Sequence record: DRR723986_6243
DNA: 35,846 nt
Direction: 5' to 3' (one strand)
The notes beneath the pieces are model-generated. The model worked only from the letters and a program-made list of their open reading frames with translations, was not told the origin of the DNA and made no database searches. The position numbers were made by a program, and so were the translations under genes. Shown here in pieces: positions 6,131 through 33,581 of the stretch (positions are counted from its first letter, which is position 1; each line of letters starts with the position of its first letter).

Positions 6131-6238
6131 TAGATTGCCCCTGATTGCCTTGAATTTCAAGCGCTTTTGCAAGCGCATGCGCGTGCGCTGGTACACTTTG
6201 GGAAAAGACAATTCCAAAAGCAGCAAAGGAGACTCACC

Positions 6239-7009: not shown

Positions 7010-7339
7010 TTAGGGATTGTTTCCACCAGTCACGATGGAAACATACTTCGCCAGAATTTTCATTTGATCCACGGTCAAATGATCAACAAAAGGGGGCATG
7101 CCCCCTTTGCCGTTTTTAAGTGCATTCAACACGCGTTCTTCGCTGGGTTTGAGCACATCGAGCACCGGACCAATTTTGCCCTTGGTGCCAGCATCGGCCA
7201 GGGTGTGGCAAATGGCGCAGGCCGGGTCCGCATCGGTTTGAAACAGTTTGCGACCCTGTTCAAGAATGGCGGCGTCGTCCATGGCGAAAGCATTGAATGT
7301 GCTCAGGCTTAACACCAACATGCAGCTGAATTTCACCAT
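7010..7339 (-). CDS. Periplasmic monoheme class I cytochrome c, SorU-like
   Basis: Signal peptide ending AFA, heme motif 'CAICH', 'TLADAG..G.IGPVLD.LKP', axial Met in 'GMPPF'. GGGAG RBS. Confidence 0.85.
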   Translation of the reverse strand: MVKFSCMLVLSLSTFNAFAMDDAAILEQGRKLFQTDADPACAICHTLADAGTKGKIGPVLDVLKPSEERVLNALKNGKGGMPPFVDHLTVDQMKILAKYVSIVTGGNNP

Positions 7340-7360
7340 GGCTGAACTCCCTGTGTTTGA

Positions 7361-8602: not shown

Positions 8603-8663
8603 CGTGGGGGTCTCCGGTGGTTCTAAATTGAAAATTATTGTTGTCACATGGTAGCTTGGGTGC

Positions 8664-10771: not shown

Positions 10772-10807
10772 AAAAAAAACCGGTGGGCTGCTCACTTCTC
10801 CCACCGG
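10772..10807 (-). terminator. Intrinsic terminator for the metal-dependent hydrolase gene
   Basis: Perfect 8-bp stem CCGGTGGG (10780-10787) / CCCACCGG (10800-10807), followed on the minus strand by U8 (A-run 10772-10779). Confidence 0.75.
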
Positions 10808-10839
10808 CTGATCAGCCCAAAGTTTCTGTCACGAAATTT

Positions 10840-11760: not shown

Positions 11761-11805
11761 GGTTTGACTCCTACACTCGTTTTATTGTTGTTGTCACAAC
11801 TAACC

Positions 11806-11825
11806 GTGACATTGCGCAATGTAAC
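11806..11825. promoter_or_regulatory. Palindromic candidate operator GTGACATTGCGCAATGTAAC
   Basis: Perfect 14-bp palindrome at 11809-11822, extending to 20 bp with one mismatch, about 45 bp upstream of the hydrolase start. Confidence 0.5.
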
Positions 11826-11905
11826 AATAAAATTTCATGTCCACAATAGCAAAACCTGAGTACCCCTTCTAGAAAATAATGCGGGTTTACCCGGAGTTTG
11901 CTGTG

Positions 11906-15297: not shown

Positions 15298-15507
15298 TCA
15301 GTCCTCGCTAAAACGGGAAGCCATTGCAATGCCAAACAAGAAGGGCCAGCGCTGGAATGAGTCGTATACCGCCTGGTCCTGTTGAATGTCTTGGTACATG
15401 TTGTGGTCAAAACCTTCCAGTTGGGCGCTGAGTGCGTAAATATCATGTGCCATGTCTGCGGGTGGCATGAACAAGGCGGGCGGTGAATTGGGGTCAAATT
15501 GTGCCAT
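15298..15507 (-). CDS. bcsR: Cellulose biosynthesis protein BcsR (YhjR-like)
   Basis: 69 aa. 'DIYAL...YQDI..Q......RWPFL' matches the BcsR pattern (E. coli 'DIVAL...YADI..RE.....KRWPLL', recalled). Starts 17 bp after the bcsG stop. Confidence 0.72.
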   Translation of the reverse strand: MAQFDPNSPPALFMPPADMAHDIYALSAQLEGFDHNMYQDIQQDQAVYDSFQRWPFLFGIAMASRFSED

Positions 15508-15524: not shown

Positions 15525-17228
15525 TCAGTTGGATGCTGCAATGGTTTGAACCGGACCCAGTATTTTCCATGCGGCACCTGGGGCTTTGATCCAATACGAT
15601 CCCTGACTTTCCATCACAGTGATGTTGCCTTGTTGGGATACAAATCGGGTGTCGGGTAGGTCGCTGAGCAGCACTGGCCATGCTGGTTTTTGCTGTTGCT
15701 CGGCTGGTAGTGCCAGCCAACGTGCCAACAATTCACTGAGCGCGGTGTAGCTCACTGATTGCTTCACTGTCACTGGCCCGGTGCTTGCAGGTGTATAACC
15801 AGGTGCTATCCAGTAACCAAATACAGGTACTTTGGTGATGGCGGGTGTCGGTAACTCGCGCAGTCCCACCAGTTGACCAAATTCACCAGTTAAGCCGGCG
15901 CCGTGTTCGGGTACCACCACCACCAGCGCCTTGCGTTCACTGCGGCGAATTTCCCCAAGTACGGATTGAATGTCATTCAACATACGCTCAAGGCGCAAGG
16001 GGTAACTGTTCAAGCTGTTCAGGTTGCTGTTGGGCAAACGGTTGCCGTCATGCAAGGTGATGCTGTTGTAGTAATAAGCCACTGCGGGCCCGCTTTGCTG
16101 AACGCGTTTGTTCCACCATGCACGCAGGTAATCACCATCGCGACCCACGCGTGAGCCATCAAAGGCCTGCACCCCGGCGGGCACTTCATCATGGGCCACC
16201 AGTTCAGTGGCTCTGCCACCCAGGTTTGTTTTTACAAGTTTTGAGAAGTCTTGAAAACGACCATCGTGATTCAGCCCCATTTCCACTTCAAAGCCCACGT
16301 TTCTCAGTTGCTCGAACAGCATGCAACTGTTGCTCGCCGGGCTGTAAAGTGCATCGTGCGGTGTTTGCCCACATTTTCCGCGCAACAAGCGAATGGCGGC
16401 TGGCCCCGAGTAACTGGTCGCTGAGTTGAAGTTTTCGAATACGAAATCGGCTTGCCGAATAGCCGGGTGTTGGCTCTGTTTTGCATACTGCAGGTCAGCC
16501 CAGGACAGCGAACAGATTTGCAGCACAATCACATCGAAATCCGGACTGGCCTGGGGTGCAAAGGGTGCCAGTGCAATGGTGCGTTGCCTTTCAAAAAAGC
16601 CGGCGAGAACGGCGCCCGGCCCCGCACCTTCATAGGCGTTGTCTCGAAGTTTGGTTTGACTTTCCTGGTCGCGCGCTACCCGCAGTTTTTGAAAATCGAC
16701 TTGGCCGAGCGCCAGTAGTTCAGCGGGCGACAAGTTTTCACGCGCCTGTATTTGGGGTTCAAGCACGGTAGCAGTGTTGTTGGTTTGGGTCTGCTCTTGA
16801 ATAAACGGCAGTGCCTGAATACCCAGGATGCAGACAAGCCCGAAGCCGACCCAACTACTGATGCGTATGTAACGATCCAGCACCCGCACTACCATGAAGC
16901 CCAGAAGTGCGCCCCACAGCATCCAGGGTTGAATGGTACGCTTGAGCAGTTCCCACAAATAGTCTGGGGAAAAACCGAACAGTGCCTTGATTTGATCAAC
17001 CAGCGCCAGCGACACCACCAGTCCTAACTCATGCAAGAGCAAAGCGATCGCCGGCCCGGTGAACACCAGGTAGCGCAGTACCTTCATCAGTTGCTTGTTC
17101 TGATAGGCCGCCGGGTTGGTGGCAATCAACAGGGCAAACAGACCCAAATTCCACAAGGGGCTAATGGTCAGTTGCCCGGCGAAGTGCAAGCCAAACTTGA
17201 TCAGGAAGTACAGGTTCCACAACAGCAT
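15525..17228 (-). CDS. bcsG: Cellulose phosphoethanolamine transferase BcsG
   Basis: N-terminal 'WNLYFLIKF' TM domain, 'QICSLSWADL', catalytic 'NSATSYSGPAAIRLLR', 'LHDGNR', 'PEHG', 'GLRELP'. Confidence 0.93.
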   Translation of the reverse strand: MLLWNLYFLIKFGLHFAGQLTISPLWNLGLFALLIATNPAAYQNKQLMKVLRYLVFTGPAIALLLHELGLVVSLALVDQIKALFGFSPDYLWELLKRTIQPWMLWGALLGFMVVRVLDRYIRISSWVGFGLVCILGIQALPFIQEQTQTNNTATVLEPQIQARENLSPAELLALGQVDFQKLRVARDQESQTKLRDNAYEGAGPGAVLAGFFERQRTIALAPFAPQASPDFDVIVLQICSLSWADLQYAKQSQHPAIRQADFVFENFNSATSYSGPAAIRLLRGKCGQTPHDALYSPASNSCMLFEQLRNVGFEVEMGLNHDGRFQDFSKLVKTNLGGRATELVAHDEVPAGVQAFDGSRVGRDGDYLRAWWNKRVQQSGPAVAYYYNSITLHDGNRLPNSNLNSLNSYPLRLERMLNDIQSVLGEIRRSERKALVVVVPEHGAGLTGEFGQLVGLRELPTPAITKVPVFGYWIAPGYTPASTGPVTVKQSVSYTALSELLARWLALPAEQQQKPAWPVLLSDLPDTRFVSQQGNITVMESQGSYWIKAPGAAWKILGPVQTIAASN

Positions 17229-17232: not shown

Positions 17233-19719
17233 CTAGTTCTCCCACTTCTCGGTTTGGTTCTTGTTGCCCATCAGGCGATTGCCCAAATCAACAGCACCGT
17301 CTTTAAGCCAGGCAAACAGGCGAACGTAACCGATCATGCCTTTGGCAAATACGTCTTTCAGACCACCCAGTGCACGGTCACGCGTTTGGTCTTCTTGCCA
17401 GTTGAGCCATGCGTCGGCCCGGCCAAAGGTGCATTGAATCAACTGTGTTTCCTGCTCTGGGGTGAGGTTGGTGAACAAGGCCTCGACATGCCCTGTTTCA
17501 GTGAAGTGAATTTTGGCCGGGAACAGGAATTCCCGGTCGCCCCGGTGCAAGCCAACCTGCACCTGGCTGAATTCGCTGATACCCGAGGTGTCGGCCACAG
17601 CCAATGTCAGCCCGGCGGCTGAGTATTCTTCGGTGTAGCAACTGACCGTGTAGCCTCCGGGCAGTTTCAAAAAGGCGGGCATCACCATTCGCACCCGGTG
17701 GTGTACATGTTTCTGAACCGACTCGGTTGCCACACCCACGGCCGCACCCAGAATGGCCAGGTTGAAGCCACACCACAACAGGTTCATTAACACCGTGCCT
17801 GTTTCATGGGTATTGAACACAAACAGGCGAAGCAAACCCACTGAAAAGCCCAACACATTGATCAACAGCAAAATCAGGTAGGGCTTCGCAATGTTCGCAT
17901 CAAAATAACTTTTCTCGATCAAGCCGCCTTTCGAGGTGACGTTGAACTTGCCCAGTTTCGGATTAATAAAGGCCAGCGTAGTCGGCAGAATGATGTACCA
18001 GGACAACACGGTTTCATACACTTCAGACCAGAACGATCGACGGTATTTGCCCTGAATTACCGAGTTGGTGTAGCTGGAAATCATCAACTGTGGCAAGGCG
18101 TAACTGAGAATGGTCACTGCGGCAGCATTGATCAGGTGTTGTTCAAAAAACAGGTAAGCCATGGGCATGACCAAAAAGATCATGCGGGGTATGCCGTAGA
18201 AAAAATGCAGCATCGCATTGGAATAGCAAATGCGCTGAAACAGGCTCAACCCCTTTTTGAACATCGGGTTGTCCGTGCGGAAAATTTGAGCCATGCCGCG
18301 TGCCCAGCGAATGCGCTGACCAATGTGGCCCGCCAGGGTTTCCGTGGCCAGGCCCGCTGCCTGAATATTGTTCAAGTACACACTGTTGTAGCCCAGGCTG
18401 TGCAGTTTAAGGGCGGTGTGCGCGTCTTCAGTCACGGTTTCTACCGCAATGCCACCCACCTCCAGCAATGCTTTGCGTTCAATCACCGCGCAGCTGCCGC
18501 AGAAAAATGAGGCGTTCCAGTAGTCGTTTCCGTCTTGGATCAGGCCGTAGAACAAAGAGCCCTCATTGGGCATTTGTCGAAATGAGTTGAAGTTGCGTTC
18601 GAACGGGTCTGCCGAGAAAAAGTGGTGCGGTGTTTGTACCAACACGCACTTGGGGTCACGGCTGAACCATCCCATGCTGGTTTGTAGAAACGAGCGTGTG
18701 GGTATGTGGTCGCAATCAAAAATGGCAATGTACTGGCCATGCGTGTGTTTCAAGGCGTAGTTGATATTGCCGGCTTTCGCATGGGAGTTGTCAGGGCGGG
18801 AAATGTATTCAACACCGGCTTGTTTTGCAAATTCTTCAAAGGCAGGGCGGTGCCCGTCGTCCAGAATGTAGACCGTTATTTTTTCAAGTGGCCAATCCAA
18901 ACCTTTGGCCGCATAAACCGTGGGGCGCACCACGGACAAAGGCTCGTTGTAACTGGGGATGAACACGTCTACGGTGGGCCAGTCATTCAGGTTCAGTTCC
19001 AGCGGCATGGGTTTGCGTTTCAAGGGCCATGCGGTCTGAATGAATCCGAATATCAGAATAATCCAGGTGTAGGCTTCGGCAGCAACCAAGGTATAACCCA
19101 GGAAAATTTCAGTGCCACTTTCAAGGTCAAGTGAACTGGTGAAACGCCAAAACACATAGCGTGCCAGCAGCAACATGGTCAGTGCCATCAGGCACAAGTT
19201 GGCAAAGCGCTCGGGCAAGCGTTTGAACAACATGGCGAACAGATAGCACACCACGATAAAGATCCATTGTCCTGCCAGGGGCAATGAGGCTTGAGCCGTG
19301 AATAGAAACAGGGCCAGGGCAGAAAGGCCCAACGCCCAGCGTAACCATTTGAAGCGCACCACAAAGTGGCTGGCGTTTTCTATTCGCTGTTCAAGCCGTG
19401 CTGCGCGCACGGCATAGTCAGTGAATCTGCTGAATTGCAAGCGTACAACGCGATAGGGACGCTGAATCAGAAACTTGAACAGATAGGTGATCGGGCTCAG
19501 CAAATCGTGCAGAGCAACAACAACAATATGCAGCACGAAACTTGGAAGGCTTCGGCCTTGTCGGCCATTGGATGCCTCCAGTGCGCTGTTTAAACTGTTC
19601 GGGCGCAGCCAAAGTGCCTGGAATAGGCGTAACAAACGAACCCGGGTTTTCAGGTTCGGAAATTCGCGCAGGTCAAGCAGGCGCTCTAGTCGGTTGATCC
19701 AGCTTGATGAGGTGCTCAT
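17233..19719 (-). CDS. bcsA: Cellulose synthase catalytic subunit BcsA (GT2 plus degenerate-looking PilZ)
   Basis: 'PSYNE', 'DDG', 'HAKAGN', 'DCD', 'QTPH', 'FFCGS', 'TED', 'QRIRW' and gating loop 'FNVTSK'. Confidence 0.97.
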   Translation of the reverse strand: MSTSSSWINRLERLLDLREFPNLKTRVRLLRLFQALWLRPNSLNSALEASNGRQGRSLPSFVLHIVVVALHDLLSPITYLFKFLIQRPYRVVRLQFSRFTDYAVRAARLEQRIENASHFVVRFKWLRWALGLSALALFLFTAQASLPLAGQWIFIVVCYLFAMLFKRLPERFANLCLMALTMLLLARYVFWRFTSSLDLESGTEIFLGYTLVAAEAYTWIILIFGFIQTAWPLKRKPMPLELNLNDWPTVDVFIPSYNEPLSVVRPTVYAAKGLDWPLEKITVYILDDGHRPAFEEFAKQAGVEYISRPDNSHAKAGNINYALKHTHGQYIAIFDCDHIPTRSFLQTSMGWFSRDPKCVLVQTPHHFFSADPFERNFNSFRQMPNEGSLFYGLIQDGNDYWNASFFCGSCAVIERKALLEVGGIAVETVTEDAHTALKLHSLGYNSVYLNNIQAAGLATETLAGHIGQRIRWARGMAQIFRTDNPMFKKGLSLFQRICYSNAMLHFFYGIPRMIFLVMPMAYLFFEQHLINAAAVTILSYALPQLMISSYTNSVIQGKYRRSFWSEVYETVLSWYIILPTTLAFINPKLGKFNVTSKGGLIEKSYFDANIAKPYLILLLINVLGFSVGLLRLFVFNTHETGTVLMNLLWCGFNLAILGAAVGVATESVQKHVHHRVRMVMPAFLKLPGGYTVSCYTEEYSAAGLTLAVADTSGISEFSQVQVGLHRGDREFLFPAKIHFTETGHVEALFTNLTPEQETQLIQCTFGRADAWLNWQEDQTRDRALGGLKDVFAKGMIGYVRLFAWLKDGAVDLGNRLMGNKNQTEKWEN

Positions 19720-20456
19720 CCGATCTCCGTGTCAATCCAATTGCACAGCTTTTGCTGATCTTCCACCAACTGTGAGCGTGGTGCATAGTCGGCCAGGGCC
19801 AGGCCAGCGGCCAGGCTTTCTGCCAGTGCCTGGTCTTCATGCAAATAAAAGGGCAGCAAACGGTGGCTCAGTTTCATTTTGCACAAAGTCCACAAATCCA
19901 GATGCAGTACCTTGGCTGAGTCGAAGCGGTTCATGAGAAAGTACGATGCGCCCCGGCTTTCGAGCAAATGTGGAAGTAGTGCGTCGATACCCAAAATAGA
20001 GGCAGAATCCGGAATCAGGGTAATCAGATTAAGATCAGACAGGGCCATCACTTTTTGGCACCATGGTGCAGGCCAACGCGGCAGGTCAATAATGACCACC
20101 GCATCTTCAGCAAACTGATCTTTTTGAAACAGTTCTGTCAGGCGTTGGGGTTGCTCCATCAATACCCGGTCAATCGCCAATTGCTGCGCCATCGTCACTT
20201 CACCGAAAGGCAGCAGCTTGAAGTCCGAATTGCTGGTGCTCATCACCTGTTCCAGAGGATCGCTCTGCAAGAGGACATGTGCAAGGCCGCGACTGCTGCG
20301 TTTGGTGAACCCCAACTGAAATTCAATGTTGTTGACGGGGTCTGCCTGCATCAGCGTCACATTGCGTCCCAGCATGCTGAGGTGGGTGGCCGTCGCAATC
20401 GCCAGGCTGGTTCGTCCTGCACCCCCGGTGGGGGAGACCAAAGCAATAATGATCAT
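19716..20456 (-). CDS. bcsQ: Cellulose biosynthesis ATPase BcsQ (MinD/ParA-like)
   Basis: Deviant Walker A 'SPTGGAGRTS', 'DPVN', 'LPFG', 'IDLP', 'HEDQALAESLA...Y.P.S'. Its stop overlaps the bcsA start (ATGA). Confidence 0.88.
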   Translation of the reverse strand: MIIIALVSPTGGAGRTSLAIATATHLSMLGRNVTLMQADPVNNIEFQLGFTKRSSRGLAHVLLQSDPLEQVMSTSNSDFKLLPFGEVTMAQQLAIDRVLMEQPQRLTELFQKDQFAEDAVVIIDLPRWPAPWCQKVMALSDLNLITLIPDSASILGIDALLPHLLESRGASYFLMNRFDSAKVLHLDLWTLCKMKLSHRLLPFYLHEDQALAESLAAGLALADYAPRSQLVEDQQKLCNWIDTEIG

Positions 20457-20662
20457 GCGTCCTCTTTTTCATCGGGGCTGGCAATCCATTTGCCATGCCG
20501 CACCAGCTGATAACAGTCGTCGGGTAACTGGTTGTTGCTCCAGTTCACCCAGTCACTTAACCAGATTCTGGTTGTCGGGTTTTTCATCATTTTGCCCACT
20601 ATCAAAATAGTGAGCAAAACGCCCAGCAGCAAACCACTCGCTATCAATGCAAGAACGATCAT
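20453..20662 (-). CDS. Small single-pass membrane protein, BcsF-like by position
   Basis: 69 aa with one N-terminal TM helix and a soluble tail. Translationally coupled (ATGA overlaps) to both bcsE and bcsQ. Confidence 0.55.
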   Translation of the reverse strand: MIVLALIASGLLLGVLLTILIVGKMMKNPTTRIWLSDWVNWSNNQLPDDCYQLVRHGKWIASPDEKEDA

Positions 20663-22065
20663 TTTGCATCCTCACTCAATAGTGCATTCAGGCGTTGTGT
20701 CCATGGGCGATTCTGGTTCAATGCTTCTGGGGTTTCATCCCAAAGATCTGCCAATTCCGAAGACTCGTTCTGGTCAGAGCCCATCAGGTCTTGCACTGAC
20801 AATGGTTCCAGTTCTTCGTGCAAATCGGCCAGCAATTCACTTTGTGTTTCTTCGCCCAAAAATTGAATGTCCCCACTGAAAAGTACGGGCAGGCTTTCCC
20901 GGAAACACGATTCAAGCCATTGGCGATAGCTGGCTTCATCAGGTTCACTGTCCCACATCTTCAGCAGATAAATGGCCTCCCGGGTGGCGGTAAACACACA
21001 TGTGGCCTGCGACCAATTGGCCAGGCGAAGCGCCGTTTGTGCAGTCATGTGACGCATCAGTGAAAGGCGGGTCAACGTGCAATGCATGGACCATTGTTTG
21101 CTCAGTTGCAACATCATCAAGCCCTGCGCCGCGAATGTCGGATTGGCTACCACTGTCAACAGGCCAGGCATGAACACCTCATGCAAGTCGCGCGAGAAGG
21201 TGTTCAGATGAGTTTTTGGGAGGTAATCATGCGTAGACGGTTTATTGACCTGCCCTGTGTCCAGACCCAACCAGGTTTCCATGTTTTGCTCATGCAGCCA
21301 CACCGTGTCCGCACCCATGCGCAGCAACACGGAGGCATCTTGTGCTGATACCTCGCCATGCGTCTGGATGTGAATCCCATGTTGCTTGTCGTTCTCGAAG
21401 CGAAGGCTGTGGCTGGCCTGTGCCAGTTGCTTCAGGTTGCCAAACACAGTGCTGTCGAGCACATGGTGCATGGGCAGTTTTGACAGTTCACTGGTGTCAT
21501 TCCACAGGTTGGTTTGCAGGCCCCATTGACTGGGCCACCAGGGGCGAAACTCAAATTCGCCAAAGTCGCTGACATCGGCCAACCCATCAGCAAAAGTGCT
21601 CCACTCGGGCAAGTCACCCTGTACGGTCGTGACTACATGGGCCTGCGCATGGTGGGCCCATTGATGCAACAGTCGCATTTGAGCCAGTGGGTTTTGCCTG
21701 TCCAGAGACTCTTTGCTGTCATCAAACCAGAGTTCAGCATGTTCGATGATCACCAAAGCAGGTTTCAACACGCACAGCGTATTCAAGGAACGGCAAAGTT
21801 GGCGAATGCCGTTCTTGGCATGCCCTTTCGCCCACAAGTTTCGAACAGACACCACATCCAGGCCTTTCGGGGCGCCCGCACGTTTGAGCAAATAAGGTTC
21901 CAGAAGGCTGCGTACTTCGTTCTTTGGGCTTGCTGTCAGCCACAGGCAAGACTTGAATGGTGTCTCTTCTTGCGAGTCCAGCCAATGCTGCACCAAGCTC
22001 TGCGAAAAACGATTCGCATGGGGCGCGCGTACAACATAGGCTCCGGGCTTGGGCAAGTCGATCAT
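20659..22065 (-). CDS. bcsE: Divergent BcsE-like cellulose biosynthesis protein
   Basis: Lies within the bcs operon. 'SAQDASVLLRMGADTVW' resembles BcsE 'RATDERLLLACGANMVI', and 'FRESLPVLFS' resembles 'FPLPTGDIFS' (recalled). Degenerate ATPase-like N-terminus. Confidence 0.7.
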   Translation of the reverse strand: MIDLPKPGAYVVRAPHANRFSQSLVQHWLDSQEETPFKSCLWLTASPKNEVRSLLEPYLLKRAGAPKGLDVVSVRNLWAKGHAKNGIRQLCRSLNTLCVLKPALVIIEHAELWFDDSKESLDRQNPLAQMRLLHQWAHHAQAHVVTTVQGDLPEWSTFADGLADVSDFGEFEFRPWWPSQWGLQTNLWNDTSELSKLPMHHVLDSTVFGNLKQLAQASHSLRFENDKQHGIHIQTHGEVSAQDASVLLRMGADTVWLHEQNMETWLGLDTGQVNKPSTHDYLPKTHLNTFSRDLHEVFMPGLLTVVANPTFAAQGLMMLQLSKQWSMHCTLTRLSLMRHMTAQTALRLANWSQATCVFTATREAIYLLKMWDSEPDEASYRQWLESCFRESLPVLFSGDIQFLGEETQSELLADLHEELEPLSVQDLMGSDQNESSELADLWDETPEALNQNRPWTQRLNALLSEDAK

Positions 22066-24489
22066 TTAAAACCTCGAGTAAGGTGCAACGCCTTCAGGCG
22101 GCACGCTCAATTCGAAAAAGTCACCGAACGAATATTTCAGATAAAGCTGCAATCGATCGGGGTTGTAACCTTCGGATCGATCGATTTCAAAATAGCCACC
22201 CACGACAAAGTTTTTTAACACCTGACGCTCAAGTGCAAGGCGCAAACCGGTGCTGGTGCCGCCACCCGGGCCACCAATTTGCAAGGTAGGGTTACCTTGT
22301 GCTGCAGCGGCAGCGGCGAGTTCCGGGTTCAGGGGGTAAAGCGCAGTGTCATCTTCTCGTGATTCACTGGCACCGACCCGGGCTTGGGCCTGCCAGGACC
22401 AACCATTCATGTTGCCAGTCCAGGTAATCGGAAATGTGAGCGAACCAAATGCCTGGGGGCTGTAGTAACCGCCTTGTCCAAAGGTGTAAAACCGCAGGTT
22501 CTTCTCAAATGACCACAAAAAGAGCGACGCACCAATTTCTACCTCATGTCCAGGGCGCTGGAACACGGTTTTGCCCACAATCCCTTGCAGGTTGTACTCG
22601 GTGTTGTCGGGTATGTTTTTACCGGTAATCAGGTTCGCACGCGCAATGCCTACAAAATCGAGAGTGGGGTTGAACGCCTGGTAATACACTGCACTGACAC
22701 CGTTGCGCCTGGCGCCACCCCAGGTTTCGCCAGTTAATGGGTCGATGGCACCAGTGGTCGACAACACACTACCATTGACCATGCGCCGGGCCACTTCCAG
22801 CCGCAACGATCCCTCGCCGAGGTTGGTGCGCCACTGCAGGCCACCCACCCAGTCATTGACCGGGTAATCGCCCACCGTGGTGCCGATATCCACACGGTAT
22901 TGCTCGGTTTGTACGCCTACACCGACCACATGGCCTTTGTAGTTCTGGTCCAGTCGGTTGCTGGCGATGGCAGGATCGGTGGGCAGGGTGGTGCCCAGCT
23001 TCGCGAAGTTGCTGGCGGTGGCGGGGTTCACCCGGCCCGAGTTCACATTCAGTGTGTCCGCACGCAAAAACAGGGTGCGCTCAAAATCAAGCGGTAAATC
23101 CAGCTGCAGGGGAATTTCGTCGCTGTCGATCCGCGATACACCTTCATCGCCATCAATAATTGCGTTTTCATACGACATGCGCAAACGTACTTGTCGTTTG
23201 CGCTGAAGGTTTTGTTCCAGTGCCTGTACTTCGGGTTCGGCTCGCCATCTCGGTGTGGCAGTGATCGAGCTGGCCAGTGCATTGAACTCGCCATTTCTCT
23301 CTTGTGTGCGCAGGCCCTCGAGGTATTGGCCGTATTGCACCCGTTTTTCCAGCGCTGTCATGCCTTCGGTCCAGTTCTCACGCGGTACGGCATTAATCAA
23401 TGCAATCGCGTCATTGCCTCGGTCTTGACGGGCCGCCAGTAGCGCCGAGGCAAATCGCATCTCCTGGCCTTGGTCCAGTGCCAAACCCTCGTCCATCACC
23501 CGCCGGGCAGCCTGTTTGCTGCCTGCATCGCCTTGGTCGTCAAGCAGCGTCGCAAGGTCGTAGCGAAACCATGGGTAGCTTGGATTCAGGTCCACTGCAT
23601 TCTGGAGCAGCCTGGCTGCCTCGGTTTTGTTGCCTTGATCAATTTGTTGTTGTGCAAGGTCAGCCAGTTGTTGCCCTTGCTCAAAATTGGACAGCACTGG
23701 GGGTGAGGTTGCCTCTTGTTCCGCGGGCGGGGATTGCGTCACCTCAGTTGTGATTGGCTGTGCTTGAGCGGCCGGCGCGGGTGTCGTTCGGTTCACGCTG
23801 CCGGGGCGACGTGGGTTTTGGGTCGTCGATGGTGTTTGCGTTTGGGCCAGTGTGCTGGCACCCGCACCAACCAACTCCGCCAAAAGGGTTCTGTAACGGC
23901 GGTCGTCCGGATACTGCTTTGCAAGCTCGGCCACCTTCGCCCGCGCGTAAGCCCGTCCATCCGGTGTGCGGTTCATCAAACGATAAATTTGTACCGCTGC
24001 CTCACCCAAGGGTGCTTGCGGTAAAAGCTGCTGCAGTCGTTGGGGAAGATTCCCCGGCACTTGTTCGCTGTCTGCCAAATAACGCAATTCGGCAAACTGC
24101 TGTCGCTTGTCGGAGGCCAGGGTAATTGCCTGTTGCAATTCAATGGAGAAGGGGTTGTTTCCGTGTACCAGTTGAAGTTTCCCCAACCACACATTGGCTG
24201 CCTGTACATCGCCGCGGGCAAGGTCAATCAATCCCTGCCAGCGCAGGGCCGAAGCATTGGTAGGTTCAATCAACAGTATTTTGTTGAACGACTGCGCTGC
24301 GAGGTCGAATCGAAAACGCTCGTACCAGTAAACCCCTTTTTCACTGAGTGCGCGAATATTGGTTTGCTGTGCATTGACATTGGCCTGGGCTTGCTCAGGC
24401 AAGGCCCAGGGCAATGCAACAAAGCAGGCTTGAATCGCCAATACAAGCTTGCAGGCTTGCAGACGGGACATTTGTTTGCAGTTAGCCAC
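22066..24489 (-). CDS. bcsC: Cellulose export outer-membrane protein BcsC (TPRs plus C-terminal beta-barrel)
   Basis: Signal peptide ending AQA, TPRs ('P.YPWFRYDLA'), barrel motifs 'DIGTT', 'WVGG', 'YTFGQGGYYSPQ', C-terminal Phe. Likely start GTG 24489 (GAGG RBS) or ATG 24471. Confidence 0.9.
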   Translation of the reverse strand: MANCKQMSRLQACKLVLAIQACFVALPWALPEQAQANVNAQQTNIRALSEKGVYWYERFRFDLAAQSFNKILLIEPTNASALRWQGLIDLARGDVQAANVWLGKLQLVHGNNPFSIELQQAITLASDKRQQFAELRYLADSEQVPGNLPQRLQQLLPQAPLGEAAVQIYRLMNRTPDGRAYARAKVAELAKQYPDDRRYRTLLAELVGAGASTLAQTQTPSTTQNPRRPGSVNRTTPAPAAQAQPITTEVTQSPPAEQEATSPPVLSNFEQGQQLADLAQQQIDQGNKTEAARLLQNAVDLNPSYPWFRYDLATLLDDQGDAGSKQAARRVMDEGLALDQGQEMRFASALLAARQDRGNDAIALINAVPRENWTEGMTALEKRVQYGQYLEGLRTQERNGEFNALASSITATPRWRAEPEVQALEQNLQRKRQVRLRMSYENAIIDGDEGVSRIDSDEIPLQLDLPLDFERTLFLRADTLNVNSGRVNPATASNFAKLGTTLPTDPAIASNRLDQNYKGHVVGVGVQTEQYRVDIGTTVGDYPVNDWVGGLQWRTNLGEGSLRLEVARRMVNGSVLSTTGAIDPLTGETWGGARRNGVSAVYYQAFNPTLDFVGIARANLITGKNIPDNTEYNLQGIVGKTVFQRPGHEVEIGASLFLWSFEKNLRFYTFGQGGYYSPQAFGSLTFPITWTGNMNGWSWQAQARVGASESREDDTALYPLNPELAAAAAAQGNPTLQIGGPGGGTSTGLRLALERQVLKNFVVGGYFEIDRSEGYNPDRLQLYLKYSFGDFFELSVPPEGVAPYSRF

Positions 24490-25633
24490 AGCTTTTAACC
24501 TCTTTGCCACGGGGCAACAGTTCACCCAGTGAATTAAAACGATAAAAATTGTCCATATAGCCTTGAGCAAACAGGCTCAAGGCACCGTTGTAATAACCGT
24601 ATTTCAGCCACGCTTCCTTGTTTGCTGTTTTCAGGCTTTGGGTGTGAAATTTTTTCGCAAGCTCGGGCATGCCGATGGCTTGAAGAAAAGGTGCCATGCT
24701 GGCTTGAAAACCGGCAGGTCCTCGCTCCGCTGAATATTTTCCACTCAGTGGTTCAAACCACTCCGGCATATTCTGGCGTTTTAATAGCAGGGCAGCCATA
24801 GGCGAAAGCTGTTTCAGCAAGGCTGCTGTAGTCGGGTCTTTGTCGCTGCTCATGGCAATCCACAGGTAGGTGCGTATGGCGTCGTAGTCCCCTCGTTGCT
24901 CATCATCGGGCAAGCGCATTTCACCGTTGTTGTACAACACCCAGTCGGGATATTGGCCCGTGCGGCCAGTGTCCAGCAGCAGTTTTTGGCTGGCCAGGTA
25001 AACCTGTGCCCAACGTGTATCGTCCGCCCAGGCGTTGGCAAATCGAGCCATCATGAAAGGTGGCAGGTAACTGGGGTTCAGTTTCACTGCTCCGTCGTCC
25101 TGCACAAAACCGGTGCGACCAGGCAGTATGCTCAATCCCAAGCCACTGACTTCCATGCTTTCTTTATTGAGGATCAGTTCGCCGAGCGCTCGCGCCTTGT
25201 CTGCATAGGCGGGGTTGCACCACACGCGGCTTGCCTCCAGTAATGTGAATGCAATCCACAAGTCGGCATCGGAGGCGCTGTTGGCGTCAATCACCCCCCA
25301 GCTTTCTCCGGTCTTGCCCCAGATCCACGCAGGCAGTTGTTGACTCATATCGCCCGCACTCAGATTGTTTTCAGTCCACTGCAATATGGCGTCGAACGCT
25401 TTTCGGTCTTGTGCTACCAAGGCAAAAAACAGGGCATAGGACTGCCCCTCCGACACTGTGCGCAGGTCTTCCTGGCTGCGATCAATCACTCGCCCGTCGT
25501 CGCTGACAAACGCACTCTTGAACCCGTCCCAGGCGGGCCAGGCTTGAGCGGGTGCGGCGCTGCAGGCCGTGGTCGCAGCAAGCAGAAGGGTGCCCAGTCC
25601 GATGCGTCGCAAACAATCACGCCACAAGACCAT
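24482..25633 (-). CDS. bcsZ: GH8 endo-1,4-beta-glucanase BcsZ
   Basis: 'TVSEGQSYALFFAL', 'LPAWIWG', 'NSASDADLW', 'NPSYLP', 'YDAIRTYLW'. Start moved to ATG 25633, 2 bp after the bcsB stop. Confidence 0.93.
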   Translation of the reverse strand: MVLWRDCLRRIGLGTLLLAATTACSAAPAQAWPAWDGFKSAFVSDDGRVIDRSQEDLRTVSEGQSYALFFALVAQDRKAFDAILQWTENNLSAGDMSQQLPAWIWGKTGESWGVIDANSASDADLWIAFTLLEASRVWCNPAYADKARALGELILNKESMEVSGLGLSILPGRTGFVQDDGAVKLNPSYLPPFMMARFANAWADDTRWAQVYLASQKLLLDTGRTGQYPDWVLYNNGEMRLPDDEQRGDYDAIRTYLWIAMSSDKDPTTAALLKQLSPMAALLLKRQNMPEWFEPLSGKYSAERGPAGFQASMAPFLQAIGMPELAKKFHTQSLKTANKEAWLKYGYYNGALSLFAQGYMDNFYRFNSLGELLPRGKEVKSCG

Positions 25634-25635
25634 GT

Positions 25636-27867
25636 TCAGTTGCCTTTTGTACGACGCGACGCCCGGCCGGAAAGCCAGCCAAATGCAAGAATTGCCAAGA
25701 TGACACCGGCGAGTGCGCCGCCCACCGCGATGAGTGCCGGGTACTCGGAGAACGCGATCCTCAAACGCAACCACCAAGGCAGTGCACCGCTGATGTAAGT
25801 GTCTCCCAAGCTGTAACTTTGTATGTCATCACCCCGAATCAGGCTCACGCTGCCTTTGATTTTGGCGACGTCGCCGTAGTCCGACAATGCCGCCACCGCG
25901 CGTTCAAAACTGTCTTGGTCTGTGCCGGTGACGACCAGGCCAGCCTTTTTTGGCGCAAGGTGCGACTCAAAACCCATAATTGCGCCCAGCGAGCCAGCGG
26001 TTTGAATCAATGCACGTGCGTTGTCACCTGGTTGTAGCTCCGAGTCGCTTTGCCACAAACCTTTCAACCACTGAATGGCGGGAGGCAGGCCCATGCTGCG
26101 TTCCGTGGCACTCAGTACCATGGGCAAGTTCATGTTGGCTGTATTCAGCCAGCCCAGGCGGTCACTGGTGCCCATGGCCAGCCAGTTTTTGCTGCCAATA
26201 CCGTCTGGCTTGTCAGAAACAATCAGGCTTGTACGTGTGGCAGGCAAGCCGGTCCACTGACCAAACAGACCCATCACATTCAAGTAAGAGCGAATTTCAA
26301 GCGGTGTGGGGGTGGCGGGTAGCACAATGGCCGTATCGGAGAGGTCTGCCATGATGCTGAATGGATAGCCGCCGTTGGCAAAGGCGGTCAGGTTCGGCAT
26401 GCGGGTGTAATGGGGCAGATTGGAGAAGTCCAAGGTTGATTCGGGGTCAATGGATCCGCGCGCTACTTGCGATACCCGTGTGCAAGAGCCACCACCTTCG
26501 GCCATGAAGCCAAATGCAAAGGCCAGTTCGTTATTGCCGCCCACGCGGAACGCTGGAATTTGCAGGGCTTCTTCGCTGGTCAACTCCGCTTGACCCAACA
26601 GGTCAATGTTGATTTTGTTTTGTACCTGTTCCGAGCGCGGAGCCAGGCGGAAGGATTGAATCAGAGAGTTGTTGATTTCGATGTTCAGCAGCGAATCATT
26701 CCAACGGGAGGGGGCCGTGTATCGGTACTTCAAATCCATCGGAATGTTTCGGCCCGCCCAACTGAACAAATCTGGTGGCAGGCGCAAATTGATGCTGGCG
26801 CGTGGCTTGTCGGAACTGACTTCCAATTGTCCCGGGAAATCAATCAGTTCACCAAAACGTACCGGCCGGTTGGTGGGTACATAGCGTGGTGCATCATAGG
26901 GCTTGCGCGGCGCACCCAGGTCCACTTTTTTCACCAGGGCTTTTTGTCCGCTGAGCACCTGGCCTTCAATGACCAAGCCATATACAGCCTGTAAAAGCTC
27001 CTCATCGGTTCGCCCCATCACATACAAATGTTTGACCCAAGGGTTTTCCTTGGCGCTCACGATCATCAGGGAAGGACCTTCAATATCGGCCTCGCTCATG
27101 CCTTCCGGCATTTTCTTGCCTTTGGTCAGAATGATGGTGTGGCGTGTTGGCGATGCCGAGTCAAGCAGTTCAAATTCGGCTTGACGGTAAAAAGCTTGCG
27201 CACCCATCCAGGAGGCCAGAATGCCGGCGGCTTTCAAGCTGGCATCAGTTTGCTCCACTGGCAATACCAGCGGCAGTCTGAGTTTTCGGTTGTCGCGAGG
27301 GTCGAAAAATGGCGCTGGCAACAGCGCCAGGTCATTCACCAGATTCAGCGGTGTAGATCCAATCGTTAACGTGCTCTCCGGGCGAATGTCAAAACGCAGG
27401 GTTGGGTTGCCTGGGTCCACGCATTCACTGTCGTAGGTGCCGTCGTATTCAACTCGAATGGTCGCGAAATCGGAAAAAAGCAGTGGATCCAATTCAATTT
27501 CAACAGTGTGCGGCACACCGGCGCGTGCTGCGCTCAACTGGGACAGGCCTGAAAGCTGGTTGTTGACGTAAACACGAACAAATGATTGATCGTGACGCAT
27601 ACCCTGCGGATACAGTACCCGAAGGCTCAGGCTTGCGCGAGTCACCAACTCGTCCAGGCGGATACCCGAATTCAAGTCAACAAAGCGGTTGACCCCGCTT
27701 AGCCGAACCCCGTTTGGCTGCCCCATTTGGGCAAAGGTCAACGTTCGGGTTCGTTCAATGGCTGGGGCCATTTCCGAATTGGTAGAAGTCGATGTGGGCT
27801 CTTTACTTTCTTGTGAGTACCCAGTTAGACAGAATAGGAATAACGCTAGGGATAGAAGGTGTCGCAT
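25636..27867 (-). CDS. bcsB: Cellulose synthase periplasmic/co-polymerase subunit BcsB
   Basis: Signal peptide, 'NDLALLPAPFFDPRD', 'RKPYDAP', 'LPPDLF', 'PNLTAFANGGYPFS..ADLS', C-terminal TM anchor. Start ATG 27867 (alternative TTG 27903). Confidence 0.93.
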   Translation of the reverse strand: MRHLLSLALFLFCLTGYSQESKEPTSTSTNSEMAPAIERTRTLTFAQMGQPNGVRLSGVNRFVDLNSGIRLDELVTRASLSLRVLYPQGMRHDQSFVRVYVNNQLSGLSQLSAARAGVPHTVEIELDPLLFSDFATIRVEYDGTYDSECVDPGNPTLRFDIRPESTLTIGSTPLNLVNDLALLPAPFFDPRDNRKLRLPLVLPVEQTDASLKAAGILASWMGAQAFYRQAEFELLDSASPTRHTIILTKGKKMPEGMSEADIEGPSLMIVSAKENPWVKHLYVMGRTDEELLQAVYGLVIEGQVLSGQKALVKKVDLGAPRKPYDAPRYVPTNRPVRFGELIDFPGQLEVSSDKPRASINLRLPPDLFSWAGRNIPMDLKYRYTAPSRWNDSLLNIEINNSLIQSFRLAPRSEQVQNKINIDLLGQAELTSEEALQIPAFRVGGNNELAFAFGFMAEGGGSCTRVSQVARGSIDPESTLDFSNLPHYTRMPNLTAFANGGYPFSIMADLSDTAIVLPATPTPLEIRSYLNVMGLFGQWTGLPATRTSLIVSDKPDGIGSKNWLAMGTSDRLGWLNTANMNLPMVLSATERSMGLPPAIQWLKGLWQSDSELQPGDNARALIQTAGSLGAIMGFESHLAPKKAGLVVTGTDQDSFERAVAALSDYGDVAKIKGSVSLIRGDDIQSYSLGDTYISGALPWWLRLRIAFSEYPALIAVGGALAGVILAILAFGWLSGRASRRTKGN

Positions 27868-28121
27868 AAGTGGTTTCGCTGGTCGACTTGAATGTAAGAA
27901 CAAAAACAGGTTTGTGTAATTGGCCTGTTTAAATCAATGTCCTCGAAAATAATGGAACAATATTTGTCAATCTTTTAAAAAGCATGTAGCACAAGTTCAT
28001 ACGTTATCCTATTGTTTTTGTATATGCTCAATTTGTGGAACTTGTTTTATACAATTATTGCGTGAAGTGTCGAAAAGAGCACACTTTCAGAAAAGAGAAT
28101 TAACAGTTTAGGGCGAATAAC
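27868..28121. promoter_or_regulatory. AT-rich divergent promoter region between the bcs operon and the partner-switch operon
   Basis: About 250-bp non-coding AT-rich gap. Contains the inverted repeat ACAAGTTC (27991-27998) / GAACTTGT (28038-28045) and the direct repeat GAAAAGAG (28072-28079, 28090-28097). Confidence 0.6.
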
Positions 28122-28460
28122 ATGGTTTCGACAGAAGAGATGGGGGATGTTTTCGTGCTGCGTGTTGACGCAGTTCGATTGGACAGTGCTGTGGGAACCA
28201 TCATCCGCAACGCGGTGGTCTCCAAGCTGGACTCCACGCGGAAATTTGCTTTGGATATTGGTGCAGTCAAGCTGGTGGACTCAGGCGGTTTGGGTTCATT
28301 GGTTGCTTTGCTCAAGAACATCACCAACCACCAGGGCAAGCTGGCTTTGGTCGGGATGAACAAATCCGTGCGGATGATGTTCGAGCTGTCTCGCATGGAC
28401 CGACAGTTTTCCTTGCTGGACGACATGCCCAAGGCAGTCGCCTTTCTGCAGCAGGCCTGA
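28122..28460 (+). CDS. STAS-domain anti-sigma-factor antagonist (SpoIIAA/RsbV-like)
   Basis: 112 aa, 'RLDS', 'LDIGAVKLVDSGGLGSLV' (phosphoacceptor Ser after Asp), 'VRMMFELSRMD'. Confidence 0.9.
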   Translation: MVSTEEMGDVFVLRVDAVRLDSAVGTIIRNAVVSKLDSTRKFALDIGAVKLVDSGGLGSLVALLKNITNHQGKLALVGMNKSVRMMFELSRMDRQFSLLDDMPKAVAFLQQA

Positions 28461-28466: not shown

Positions 28467-31400
28467 GTGACGGACCACAATCCCAACAAGCCGCTGCCCC
28501 GAATTCTGGTTGTTGATGATTCGGTGGTAGAGCGAAACCTCTTCGTTCACATGGTAGCCAGGTGGGGATATCCGGTTGAGTTTGCAGCCAGCGGTCAAGA
28601 GGCCATCCAACTTGTAGAACGTGATCGGTTCCAATTGGTGCTGGCGGACTGGCAAATGCCTGGCATGCAGGGCACTGAATTGTGTGCAGCCTTACGCCAG
28701 CTGGACCTGGGGCAGTACACCTACATCATCCTGATGTCTGCCCAGAATGATGAAGAGTTCTTGATCAAGGCGCTGGATGCCGGTGCCGACGATGTTCTCG
28801 CCAAGCCTGTAGATGGCAATGAACTGGAAGCACGCTTGCAGTCGGCCGTTCGCCGAATTGAACTTCAAGCGCAGCTCGCCCGCAAAACAGACGAACTGGC
28901 ACATGCCCACGATGTGATTGCACAAGATCTCCGAGCGGTGTCTGGCCTTCAACGCAGTTTCCTACCCGAAATACAAAGCCCATTCCAGGGTCTGAACTAT
29001 CAGTGGTTGTCCGTGCCGTCCAAATACGTGTCTGGCGATCACTTGCAGGTTTTTGAATTGCAGCGCGACGTGTATGGTTTTTACCTGCTCGATGTATCCG
29101 GGCATGGCATACCTGCCGCCGTGAAATCCATGCAACTGGTTCAGATGTTTGCGGATCGGTCTGCCACCAGCATTGTTTTTGAAGGTCGTCTGGGACCGGA
29201 TGGTCAGCGTTTGATTTCTCGCCCACGCGATGTAGTTGCGCGCCTGAACCGCCTGTTTCAGCAAACCGAATCTGATCTTTCTTACTTCACCATGATTTAC
29301 GGCGTGTTCAATACCGTCAATCGACAGGTGGCCCTGTGCCAGGCCGGCCATCCCTCCCCCTTGCTGTTGTCAGTCGGACAACCCGCCAAAGTGCTGGGCG
29401 GTGGCGGGTATCCTGTGGGTTTGTTCGACCTCGATGATTTTGAGGACATTGAACTGACGCTGGGCAACGAGGATTCCCTGATTCTGTATTCCGATGGTGT
29501 CACCGAGGTCCTGTCGGCCAGCGCTGAGGCATTTGGCGAAGAACGCCTGATTGAGTTTGTCAATCAGCAAGGCGCTCAGGGGCGTTGGTCCGATTTGCCT
29601 GAGCGCATTCAAATGCGCGTTCAACGTTGGGGCGGCTCGGTCATCGAGCAAAAAGGTTTTGAGGACGACGTGTCTATCCTGATGCTCGCGCCTCGCCCCG
29701 GGGTGTTGGACCAGAGTGATGTGGTGGATGCGGACCGGCAGGTGCCCGAACTGGTGTTTCGTCTTCAGGAAATTCAGAACAGTCAGCCTGTCTCTGTGCC
29801 CGCGAAAGCCGGGAAGTCAATTGTCATCGTTGACGATTCCCGCAGCTTTTTGAGAATTTTTGAGGCCATGCTGCACAGCTGGGGCTACACCGTTCATGCT
29901 GCAAAAAATGGCCATGAGGCTTTGACCCTGATTGAAAAACACCAGCCCGACTTTGTGCTCACCGACTGGGACATGCCTGGCATGAGCGGCATTGAGTTGT
30001 GCGAGCAAGTGCGGGCTCAAAAGCAAAACGCCTACACCTATATCATCATGATCACTGGCTACGCCAGTCGCGACGATCTGCTGAACAGCCTGCGCGTGGG
30101 GGCGGATGATTTCATGACCAAGCCGGTCAATCCAGGCGAGCTGAAAGTGCGTTTGAAAACCGCCGAGCGGATTGCAGATTTGCACATGGGGCTAGAGCGC
30201 AGACACACCGAACTCAGCCAACTGTATGAAGCGTTGCAGCGTGACATGCGAGAAGTGTCGCGCATTCAGCGGGCCTTGTTGCCTAAAAGTAAACAAGAAC
30301 CCTGGCCATTCGCCATTCAGACCATTTATCAACCGCAGGGCTATGTGTGCGGCAAACAAATGGGTCTGCTCGAAACCCAGGCCAATGAGCATGGTTTTTT
30401 CATGTTGAACATGGCGGGCCAGGACACGGCCACCGCCTTGCAGACCATGGCGCTGGCGAGGTGGTTCTCCATGGCGCGGGCCACTCGAGTCTTGTTTCCC
30501 GTGGAGGAGACCAGTTCGAAAATTCGACGTTACCTGGCCAGCCCGGAGCAGGTTCTAGCCCAGTTGTCGAGCATTTCCCCCTCCCTAAAGGACGAGCCTC
30601 CCCAGTTCGATCTGCTGTACGGTTTGATCAATCTGGATCAGGGCACCTTGTTGATCGCGGGTATTGGTGAGTGGTCCATGGTCATGGCCCAGCCTGGCTT
30701 GGCACCCGCATTTTTGGGTATGCAAGGCGAGCATGGCCAAGCACCTGGTGTAGGGCAGGTTATTTATCAGGGTGTGATTGCTCCTGGTAGCCGACTTTAT
30801 TTTTATCCGCGGGAATGCGCCCACACTCTGGGGGTACCTCATTCACAGGTATGGCAACAATCCGTCTTGCTGGATGACACCCAAGGCTATGTGCTGACTC
30901 GCGAGTTTTCGAGATTACTCGATTCCGGTCGCAAGGAAGACAGCACCGGGGGCGACTTGTGTTTGCTGGGTATTCAGTGGCGAGAGAGCTTTGAAGTTCA
31001 ACGCCTTGATTTGTCCTCAGCCCAAGTGTCCGAGTTGGTTGATGAGTTCGTGCAGACAGGCTTGACCCTGCAAGACGAGTTTTCATCTCACGAGCAGGCA
31101 TTTAAATTGGGTGAGTTTTTAAATTACACCGCATTCAGTGCCGTGGCCGACACCGTCAACATTGGCGTGTTGAGCCGCGCGGTCCGTACCTTTGTAGAAG
31201 AGCTGGCTTACACCGAGGAGGTTTGTTACAACACCGATTTGGTGGTGTCTGAAGCCCTGACCAATGTGATGCTGCACGGTTTTAAAGACAAACGTCCCGA
31301 GCCTGTGCGGCTCACCGTACTGGCTTTTCAGCACGGCGTCGGTGTGTTGATCGAGGACTGGGGTAGCCGTATCCCCGCCCATGTGCTCGGTAAAATGCAC

Positions 31401-31547
31401 CATGAACATTCATTCCAAGATGACCTTAGCTTGGACGACTTGCCCGAGGGGGGGATGGGTTTGGCATTCATGCGCATGGTGTCACAACGCTTCGTATACC
31501 AGGCCAGTCAAAACCAGCAAGGCAATCGCCTGTTGTTATTGTTGTAA
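28467..31547 (+). CDS. Fused regulator: REC - SpoIIE/PP2C phosphatase - REC - degenerate PP2C - RsbW-type Ser/Thr kinase (HATPase)
   Basis: REC1 'VVDDS..LADWQMPG..KP'. PP2C 'SGD','DVSGHG','AGHP','YSDG','DDVS'. REC2 'IVDDS..LTDWDMPG..KP'. Second PP2C-like block lacks the Asp motifs. Kinase 'SEALTNVMLHG','IEDWG','EGGMGL'. GTG start 6 bp after the STAS stop. Confidence 0.88.
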   Translation: MTDHNPNKPLPRILVVDDSVVERNLFVHMVARWGYPVEFAASGQEAIQLVERDRFQLVLADWQMPGMQGTELCAALRQLDLGQYTYIILMSAQNDEEFLIKALDAGADDVLAKPVDGNELEARLQSAVRRIELQAQLARKTDELAHAHDVIAQDLRAVSGLQRSFLPEIQSPFQGLNYQWLSVPSKYVSGDHLQVFELQRDVYGFYLLDVSGHGIPAAVKSMQLVQMFADRSATSIVFEGRLGPDGQRLISRPRDVVARLNRLFQQTESDLSYFTMIYGVFNTVNRQVALCQAGHPSPLLLSVGQPAKVLGGGGYPVGLFDLDDFEDIELTLGNEDSLILYSDGVTEVLSASAEAFGEERLIEFVNQQGAQGRWSDLPERIQMRVQRWGGSVIEQKGFEDDVSILMLAPRPGVLDQSDVVDADRQVPELVFRLQEIQNSQPVSVPAKAGKSIVIVDDSRSFLRIFEAMLHSWGYTVHAAKNGHEALTLIEKHQPDFVLTDWDMPGMSGIELCEQVRAQKQNAYTYIIMITGYASRDDLLNSLRVGADDFMTKPVNPGELKVRLKTAERIADLHMGLERRHTELSQLYEALQRDMREVSRIQRALLPKSKQEPWPFAIQTIYQPQGYVCGKQMGLLETQANEHGFFMLNMAGQDTATALQTMALARWFSMARATRVLFPVEETSSKIRRYLASPEQVLAQLSSISPSLKDEPPQFDLLYGLINLDQGTLLIAGIGEWSMVMAQPGLAPAFLGMQGEHGQAPGVGQVIYQGVIAPGSRLYFYPRECAHTLGVPHSQVWQQSVLLDDTQGYVLTREFSRLLDSGRKEDSTGGDLCLLGIQWRESFEVQRLDLSSAQVSELVDEFVQTGLTLQDEFSSHEQAFKLGEFLNYTAFSAVADTVNIGVLSRAVRTFVEELAYTEEVCYNTDLVVSEALTNVMLHGFKDKRPEPVRLTVLAFQHGVGVLIEDWGSRIPAHVLGKMHHEHSFQDDLSLDDLPEGGMGLAFMRMVSQRFVYQASQNQQGNRLLLLL

Positions 31548-33579: not shown

Positions 33580-33581
33580 AA

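Follow-up and report, generated by a model that had tools for sequence, protein, structure and literature searches.

Lineage-wide loss of a gating arginine from the PilZ linker of the Limnobacter cellulose synthase

The DNA analysed here (record DRR723986_6243, 35,846 nucleotides, hereafter the window) carries a bacterial cellulose synthase (bcs) operon whose synthase gene, bcsA, encodes an altered PilZ linker. At the position of the arginine that serves both gating and the binding of cyclic di-GMP (c-di-GMP) in Rhodobacter sphaeroides and Escherichia coli, this BcsA has a histidine, H671 (Table 1). The closest named homologs of the protein are from Limnobacter, and the protein of genome G001 is identical to it. 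The loss of this arginine is real, lineage-wide and convergent. Comparative evidence suggests that the Limnobacter cellulose synthase is probably uncoupled from c-di-GMP, both receptors of the complex, the PilZ linker of BcsA and BcsE, having lost their binding arginines.

The bcs operon and its c-di-GMP sites

The gene product has the attributes of a BcsA. The family 2 glycosyltransferase signature D,D,D,QxxRW (here DDG, DCD, TED and QRIRW) and the gating-loop motif FxVTxK are intact, a transmembrane channel is present, and the structure model reaches a TM-score of 0.82 to E. coli BcsA, which was also the top match by sequence and by fold. The C-terminal PilZ barrel is recognized by PF07238 (25.0 bits against a cut-off of 22.5) and forms a beta-strand domain in the model. 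Neither c-di-GMP-activation motif is canonical, however: the linker reads HxxxR instead of RxxxR, and the second motif ExSxxG instead of D/NxSxxG. A gap-free alignment to the BcsA structures of E. coli and R. sphaeroides, in which Rhodobacter residue numbers were counted with a 12-residue offset, equates K670 with R579, H671 with R580/R696, R675 with R584/R700, E698 with D609/D723 and E460 with E371/E485 (Rhodobacter/E. coli). An earlier note on this DNA, made from the letters alone, had proposed a natural c-di-GMP-independent synthase on the strength of this linker; its positions for the His, the Arg, E-Y-S-A-A-G, the partner Glu and FNVTSK are all correct, and the alignment upholds its register.

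Two technical explanations were discarded. A shift of register to another RxxxR is rejected, as the sole candidates, H671-R675 and H673-R677, both start without Arg. A sequencing or strain variant is likewise rejected, as CAT and CAC both encode the His across the genus. Contigs from other runs carry the same codon at 671: the pieces of X1 and X2 have 0 differing letters, and that of X10 spans the codon unchanged, with its 10 differences lying elsewhere.

The operon order is bcsB-Z-C-E-F-Q-A-G-R, and having bcsE and bcsG alongside bcsQ, R, A, B, Z and C it is a type II (E. coli-like) system. A 69-aa open reading frame (ORF) behind bcsE has no family match and is conserved in 26/26 loci of the genus; from its position and shape it is likely to be bcsF. 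The model of the diverged BcsE (predicted local distance difference test 85) had nine top matches in the PDB, all of them E. coli entries that contain BcsE. E. coli BcsE is reported to bind c-di-GMP at two sites, the indispensable R415xxD and a second, R306xxD (PMC7840130, PMC11470070). These sites are intact in none of 22 Limnobacter rows (from 27 available, five near-copies being excluded), whereas the I-site RxxD and the REC Arg are kept in 31/31 outgroup loci. In a wider library 85 of 90 distant BcsE matches keep both sites; the remaining five are three short proteins without REC, resembling those of the sister genomes, and two that aligned poorly. The sister genomes G043 and G509 have BcsE proteins of 366-394 aa from which the REC* domain is deleted (L104:7647-8744 and L290:14134-15315). 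In G140, the closest relative of Arg type, BcsE is canonical and there are 32 GGDEF matches. In E. coli, Asp21 of BcsR is described as being held by two BcsA arginines, R367 and R792 (PMC11470070); BcsR and both contact arginines (here R342 and R767) are conserved in Limnobacter, the arginines in 42/42 clusters of the clade defined below.

Table 1. Features of the window named in the text; residues are those of BcsA unless another protein is given
Feature	Positions	Strand	Remarks
ORF	5396-6226	-	no confident family match
SorU-like cytochrome c gene	7010-8836		beside NADH:flavin oxidoreductase gene
ORF	10783-11859	+	no confident family match
Wax ester/triacylglycerol synthase gene	13882-15294		converges on bcsR
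bcsR	15298..15507	-	final operon gene; D21-equivalent Asp kept
bcsG, phosphoethanolamine transferase	15525..17228	-	CSLSW, SYSGP, LHDG and PEHG shared with E. coli BcsG
bcsA, cellulose synthase, 828 aa	17233..19719	-	TIGR03030 849 bits, over cut-off
R767	17419..17421	-	Ec R792; hinge contact of BcsR D21
E746	17482..17484	-	replaces Gly of last PilZ strand (Ec G771)
E-Y-S-A-A-G (E698-G703)	17611..17628	-	replaces D/NxSxxG; E698 = Ec D723
R675	17695..17697	-	codon CGG; second motif Arg, retained
H671	17707..17709	-	codon CAT; gating and c-di-GMP-binding Arg position (Rs R580, Ec R696)
K670	17710..17712	-	Rs R579
FNVTSK	17929..17946	-	gating-loop motif
E460	18340..18342	-	salt-bridge partner (Rs E371), retained
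R342	18694..18696	-	Ec R367; BcsR D21 contact
bcsQ	19716..20456	-	
69-aa single-membrane-helix ORF	20453..20662	-	candidate bcsF, directly behind bcsE
bcsE, diverged, 468 aa	20659..22065	-	profile and fold; both c-di-GMP sites lost
BcsE GGDEF* I-site	20998..21009	-	Q-A-T-C; E. coli R415-T-G-D
BcsE REC* site	21337..21348	-	S-A-Q-D; E. coli R306-A-T-D
bcsC, outer-membrane channel	22066..24570	-	short TPR part
bcsZ, GH8 endoglucanase	24482..25777	-	ORF from first start codon
bcsB	25636..27903	-	
STAS protein	28122..28460	+	invariant D53-S54-G55; head-to-head with bcsB; candidate regulator
1026-aa protein	28467..31547	+	two receiver domains, SpoIIE phosphatase, C-terminal serine-kinase-type HATPase
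ORF	33570-34454	+	no confident family match
Rs, R. sphaeroides; Ec, E. coli.

Distribution of the arginine loss

Arg is absent at residue 671 from all 25 scored Limnobacter genomes, in which the residue is His in 22 and Tyr, Phe and Asn in one each; the 26th genome (G017, 65% complete, copy L025) has three in-frame stops in bcsA and was left unscored. Across 42 clusters of the wider clade the residue is H in 29, N in 6, F in 2, S in 2 and Y, Q and R in one each. Because the position is this variable, the conserved feature is the absence of Arg and not the presence of His. Outgroups have Arg at the equivalent position in 78/78 proteins, 75/75 loci and 38/38 family-level loci, and a draw across the order found it in 17 of 20 non-Limnobacter loci (these sets overlap). 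By the first three of these counts the pattern goes beyond chance. In a BcsA tree of 83 rows, picked from a larger set and calculated with the PilZ columns excluded, one clade of 37 rows with support 100 contains all 36 non-Arg rows. The single Arg row of this clade, P0024, is nested deep within it. P0024 has Arg back at 671 with E698 and E746 still present, and is likely to be a reversion and a natural control. A search of metagenomes with the clade-specific pattern returned eight loci, all of them close Limnobacter relatives with His.

The remainder of the pocket has been remodelled in the same clade. Position 670 is K or R in 37/42 clade clusters (T, Q, D or E in the other 5) and in 2/153 outside. 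R675 is kept in 42/42, S700 in 40/42 and G703 in 37/42. New residues typical of the clade are, besides K/R670, H673 (36/42), R/K677 (42/42), E698 (35/42) and E746 (35/42), the last being found in 0/153 outside, where outgroups mostly have Gly; the neighbouring H674 is ancestral, with His in 75/78 outgroup proteins. The partner Glu at 460 has become D, Q or S in 5/42 clade clusters, compared with non-Glu in 2/153 outside (Fisher p=0.006, descriptive only since relatives are not independent). Over 12 pairs the ratio of non-synonymous to synonymous substitution rates (dN/dS) was 0.005-0.079 in the PilZ domain and 0.009-0.034 in the transmembrane and glycosyltransferase core, low values by which a decaying bcsA gene is rejected.

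Most Limnobacter genomes hold only the Arg-less BcsA. Three (G011, locus L029; G009, L030; G016, L069/L084) encode in addition a BcsA that belongs to a distant branch and has its own bcsB, and these second copies are canonical (RxxxR and DxSxxG). A different alteration was seen in Dyella-type BcsAs (L118, L136, P0108, P0109, P0119, P0120), which keep the first Arg and have His as the second (RxxxH).

Genome-wide loss of c-di-GMP from Limnobacter is rejected, since cyclases, phosphodiesterases and canonical PilZ loci are present. Genome G001 has 7 GGDEF and 4 EAL matches, with GG(D/E)EF or SGDEF in four of the GGDEFs, and all 8 of 8 loci for other PilZ proteins, which we label YcgR-like, have canonical motifs. 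As cyclases, these PilZ proteins and the second BcsA copies keep their motifs, the loss is, at the level of motifs, specific to the cellulose machine within the Limnobacter cell. The sister genome G043 has no GGDEF or EAL match, a result of little weight as this genome seems incomplete (a synthetase family has 3 matches in it, compared with 4-5 in six complete Sutterella genomes).

A second loss was found among the exceptions in the order-wide draw, all three of which belong to one genus (g69) with homologs named Sutterella. BcsA was detected in 22 of its 34 genomes, any GGDEF in 8 of the 34, and 15 of the 22 BcsA genomes gave no GGDEF match, cyclases of other folds not being sought. Among 22 scored copies (one truncated copy being excluded), 20 are without the Arg (H15, E4, Y1) with catalytic motifs intact, and the second PilZ motif is also altered in most of these. 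All 14 scored BcsA genomes without a GGDEF match lack the Arg, and 9 of the 14 are at least 94% complete; G397, which has the His and Glu pattern, is 100% complete with neither GGDEF nor EAL match. The two copies of Arg type come from genomes that have 15 and 4 GGDEFs. That an intact synthase is retained in genomes without a detectable cyclase constitutes the strongest evidence at hand that a linker of this type works without c-di-GMP.

The non-Arg groups of Limnobacter and Sutterella form separate clades in a 48-row tree, and a single origin of the two losses was rejected by the approximately unbiased (AU) test (p=4e-135, 28 rows). Within the wider Sutterella group the 671-equivalent is His in 62/89 clusters, D, E, Q, Y and L also being tolerated, and the partner Glu has become Asp in 21/83 scored non-Arg clusters compared with 0/5 Arg clusters. 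Genomes of this group (L329-L351, L281-L286) carry bcsA-B-Z-G, with bcsC seen in G243, and stretches from three of them gave no tblastn match for bcsQ, R or E. The non-Arg Sutterella BcsAs have also lost the BcsR-contact Arg (E. coli R367), which the two Arg copies keep. No report of the Arg loss in Limnobacter or Sutterella was found among the top-ranked literature matches, a set mostly outside the subscription literature, and passages from PMC13609730, PMC10333796, PMC7397504 and PMC10106347 make no mention of a natural loss of this Arg.

Probable uncoupling from c-di-GMP and the alternatives

Findings in two model systems suggest how a synthase without this arginine might function. In R. 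sphaeroides the pairing of R580 with E371 is reported to hold the gating loop shut and R580 to flip to bind c-di-GMP (PMC8892547), and R580A is described, second-hand, as constitutively active (PMC5567048); in E. coli, ligand-free BcsA held by BcsRQ is reported to have an open active site (PMC11470070). From these findings the lock would be absent from Limnobacter BcsA and BcsRQ would keep the enzyme active: without the R580-equivalent Arg a salt bridge to E460 could not lock the gating loop closed, and docking of BcsR and BcsQ on the PilZ domain would hold BcsA in its active state. The PilZ barrel and BcsE may then persist as scaffolds, with control located elsewhere, perhaps in expression, assembly, UDP-glucose supply or the STAS switch that faces the operon. 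The product of the operon is likely to be phosphoethanolamine-cellulose, made without a need for c-di-GMP. K670 is unlikely to have replaced the lock, since the same position in R. sphaeroides is Arg (R579) and R580A is, according to that report, constitutive. At the level of a guess, E698 and E746 might pair with R675 and so fill the vacant pocket. For the c-di-GMP independence proposed in the earlier note, the comparative part has gained strong support, from the lost BcsE sites, the drift of the partner Glu and the second loss in Sutterella, and what it implies for activity and binding we infer from sequence.

Several points weigh against this reading. Limnobacter retains c-di-GMP signalling genes, and its pocket is remodelled, not eroded (K/R670, R675, R/K677, S700 and G703 prevail in the clade), and could still bind a nucleotide. 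BgsA, a synthase without PilZ motifs, is reported to depend on c-di-GMP, and mutation of its candidate Arg gave no release (PMC5567048). The R580A result, known second-hand from the same paper, was obtained in vitro with a type I-like BcsAB. In Sutterella, the Arg is also missing from five genomes that have 1-3 GGDEFs, and G547 holds one Arg and one non-Arg copy; moreover, there are only two origins, so the tie to cyclase loss rests on one. Finally, a point in favour of the reading that carries its own caveat is that Limnobacter alexandrii LZ-4, whose BcsA (L100) is 96% identical and has the same linker, makes up to 160 ug/mL of exopolysaccharide (EPS), which its authors presume to be cellulose (PMC12628687); the identity of this polymer is a presumption.

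A proposal that would add to uncoupling from c-di-GMP, and which we hold tentatively, is that the STAS protein and the 1026-aa receiver-phosphatase-kinase have taken over control of the Bcs complex or of its expression. Together the two supply the elements of a partner-switching module, namely a STAS domain that has the conserved Ser, a SpoIIE phosphatase and a kinase of the HATPase type, and the larger protein is, from its domains, likely to be the kinase/phosphatase of the STAS protein. The pair faces bcsB in 26/26 Limnobacter genomes and in each of the two sister genomes (28/28 for the clade), and stays in place in G043, where the genes beyond bcsR differ. Of 401 genomes of the order, 3 gave a STAS ortholog, all of them Limnobacter, and the other 398 gave none (E<=1e-15); it was likewise not found in G140, the closest relative of Arg type, and a search of 4 Arg-type genomes that share the operon order did not find the regulator. 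There are described precedents for control of polysaccharide by STAS switches in SypA/SypE of Vibrio fischeri (PMC4517449) and All4160/HenR of Anabaena (PMC13555669). Against the proposal, the pair has one origin only, and plain inherited synteny is possible: the wax ester synthase gene likewise adjoins bcsR in most Limnobacter genomes as well as in G509. The STAS protein had no match in three Sutterella genomes tested, so it is not needed for the Arg loss, and such switches are said often to regulate sigma factors for unrelated genes (PMC13555669). A complex prediction for BcsA 130-810 with STAS, run without alignments, scored 0.02 and weighs neither way; a scan for promoters in the stretch that separates bcsB from the STAS gene gave none, and the contigs from RNA runs, being long and evenly covered, are uninformative on transcription. 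A second STAS paralog was observed at two loci (L222:3943-4281, L223:4079-4396) between type IVb pilus genes and a gene for a GH17-GT2 glucan synthase, which we take to be NdvB-like.

More doubtful still is a fuller scenario, in which c-di-GMP was abandoned by the whole Limnobacter type II machine (BcsA and BcsE) though not by the cell, and control passed to the STAS serine-phosphorylation switch, acting at the remodelled PilZ pocket or the BcsE scaffold; an equivalent of R580A would have evolved at least twice, and cellulose synthesis would continue in Sutterella after cyclase loss.

Retention of c-di-GMP dependence through a rewired site is improbable. K670, R675 and R677 might form a non-canonical site, or K670 might pair with E460, and the gain of K/R670 in the clade, the fixation of R675 and R/K677, the general retention of S700 and G703, the low dN/dS of the PilZ domain, the cyclases of Limnobacter and the precedent of BgsA are all consistent with this. 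Yet the report that R580A is constitutive despite R579 argues against it, as do the clusters with T, Q, D or E at 670, the two new Glu residues (698 and 746) where outgroups have D/N and mostly Gly, the parallel loss of both BcsE sites, and the recurrence of the His and Glu pattern in Sutterella genomes without a GGDEF match, including the complete, EAL-less G397.

The chance is smaller again that some other contact keeps the synthase closed, with a different ligand or protein to open it, or that the enzyme is nearly inactive. A pocket that is remodelled and conserved, a nine-part operon suggestive of tight control and the second, canonical BcsA of three genomes would fit; however, strong purifying selection and a genus-wide operon argue against an inactive synthase, most genomes have the Arg-less BcsA alone, and no ligand is indicated. 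Least probable, and not supported, is the earlier note's alternative of a His-rich linker that makes gating sensitive to pH or metal: His recurs at the site in both lineages, H673, E698 and E746 are clade-typical and EPS of LZ-4 rose 61% from pH 5 to 9, but N, F, Y, S and Q are tolerated at the site in the Limnobacter clade, as are D, E, Q, Y and L in the Sutterella group, H674 is ancestral, His is one transition from Arg (CGY to CAY), and alkaline pH is reported to have increased EPS in each of the seven strains studied there (PMC12628687).

Among the other genes of the window, the wax ester synthase gene shows conserved synteny across most Limnobacter genomes, and a SorU-like cytochrome c gene adjoins one for an NADH:flavin oxidoreductase. 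Two of the three long ORFs without a confident family match may be spurious, because that at 10783-11859 lies opposite a metal-hydrolase gene and that on the minus strand overlaps other ORFs.

Significance and comparison with known systems

Signalling by c-di-GMP has its founding example in the activation of cellulose synthase. A complete type II system that by nature lacks every canonical c-di-GMP site offers a direct test of whether docking of BcsR and BcsQ alone keeps BcsA active, and one in which the scaffold role of BcsE can be separated from its role as a sensor. If our reading is true, the operon is a natural, signal-independent source of modified cellulose, and LZ-4 provides a cultured strain with the same linker. 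The second loss draws attention to cellulose operons, as yet unexamined, in Sutterella that are common in the gut.

The nearest known system is the type II Bcs machine of E. coli (BcsRQABZC-EFG; PDB 9FNN, 9FP0), for which all nine subunits have a counterpart here (bcsF by position and shape only); the BcsR-contact residues are kept, and E. coli proteins are the top sequence and fold matches of BcsA and the top fold matches of BcsE. Limnobacter differs from it by the change of R696 to His and D723 to Glu, by the absence of R306 and R415xxD from BcsE, by the gene order and by the STAS switch that faces the operon. The engineered R. sphaeroides R580A enzyme has lost the same residue with the partner Glu and gating motif kept, and by inference Limnobacter BcsA would work like this mutant; the Limnobacter loss, in contrast, is natural, is fixed across the genus and two sister genomes, is set in a type II complex and is accompanied by further changes to the pocket. 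RiGT2 of Romboutsia ilealis is described as a natural BcsA-like synthase that is independent of c-di-GMP and needs its PilZ domain for activity, but it keeps RxxxR, has lost the Glu partner, makes a mixed-linkage glucan and is predicted to be independent of BcsB (PMC10374906). BgsA of Sinorhizobium meliloti is, like the Limnobacter enzyme, a GT2 synthase without canonical PilZ motifs, but has another C-terminal domain and is reported still to require c-di-GMP, making it a counter-example (PMC5567048). SypA/SypE and All4160/HenR resemble the facing switch in combining STAS with a serine kinase/phosphatase to control polysaccharide; as described, they act on no Bcs system, while the link in Limnobacter is known from genomic linkage alone.

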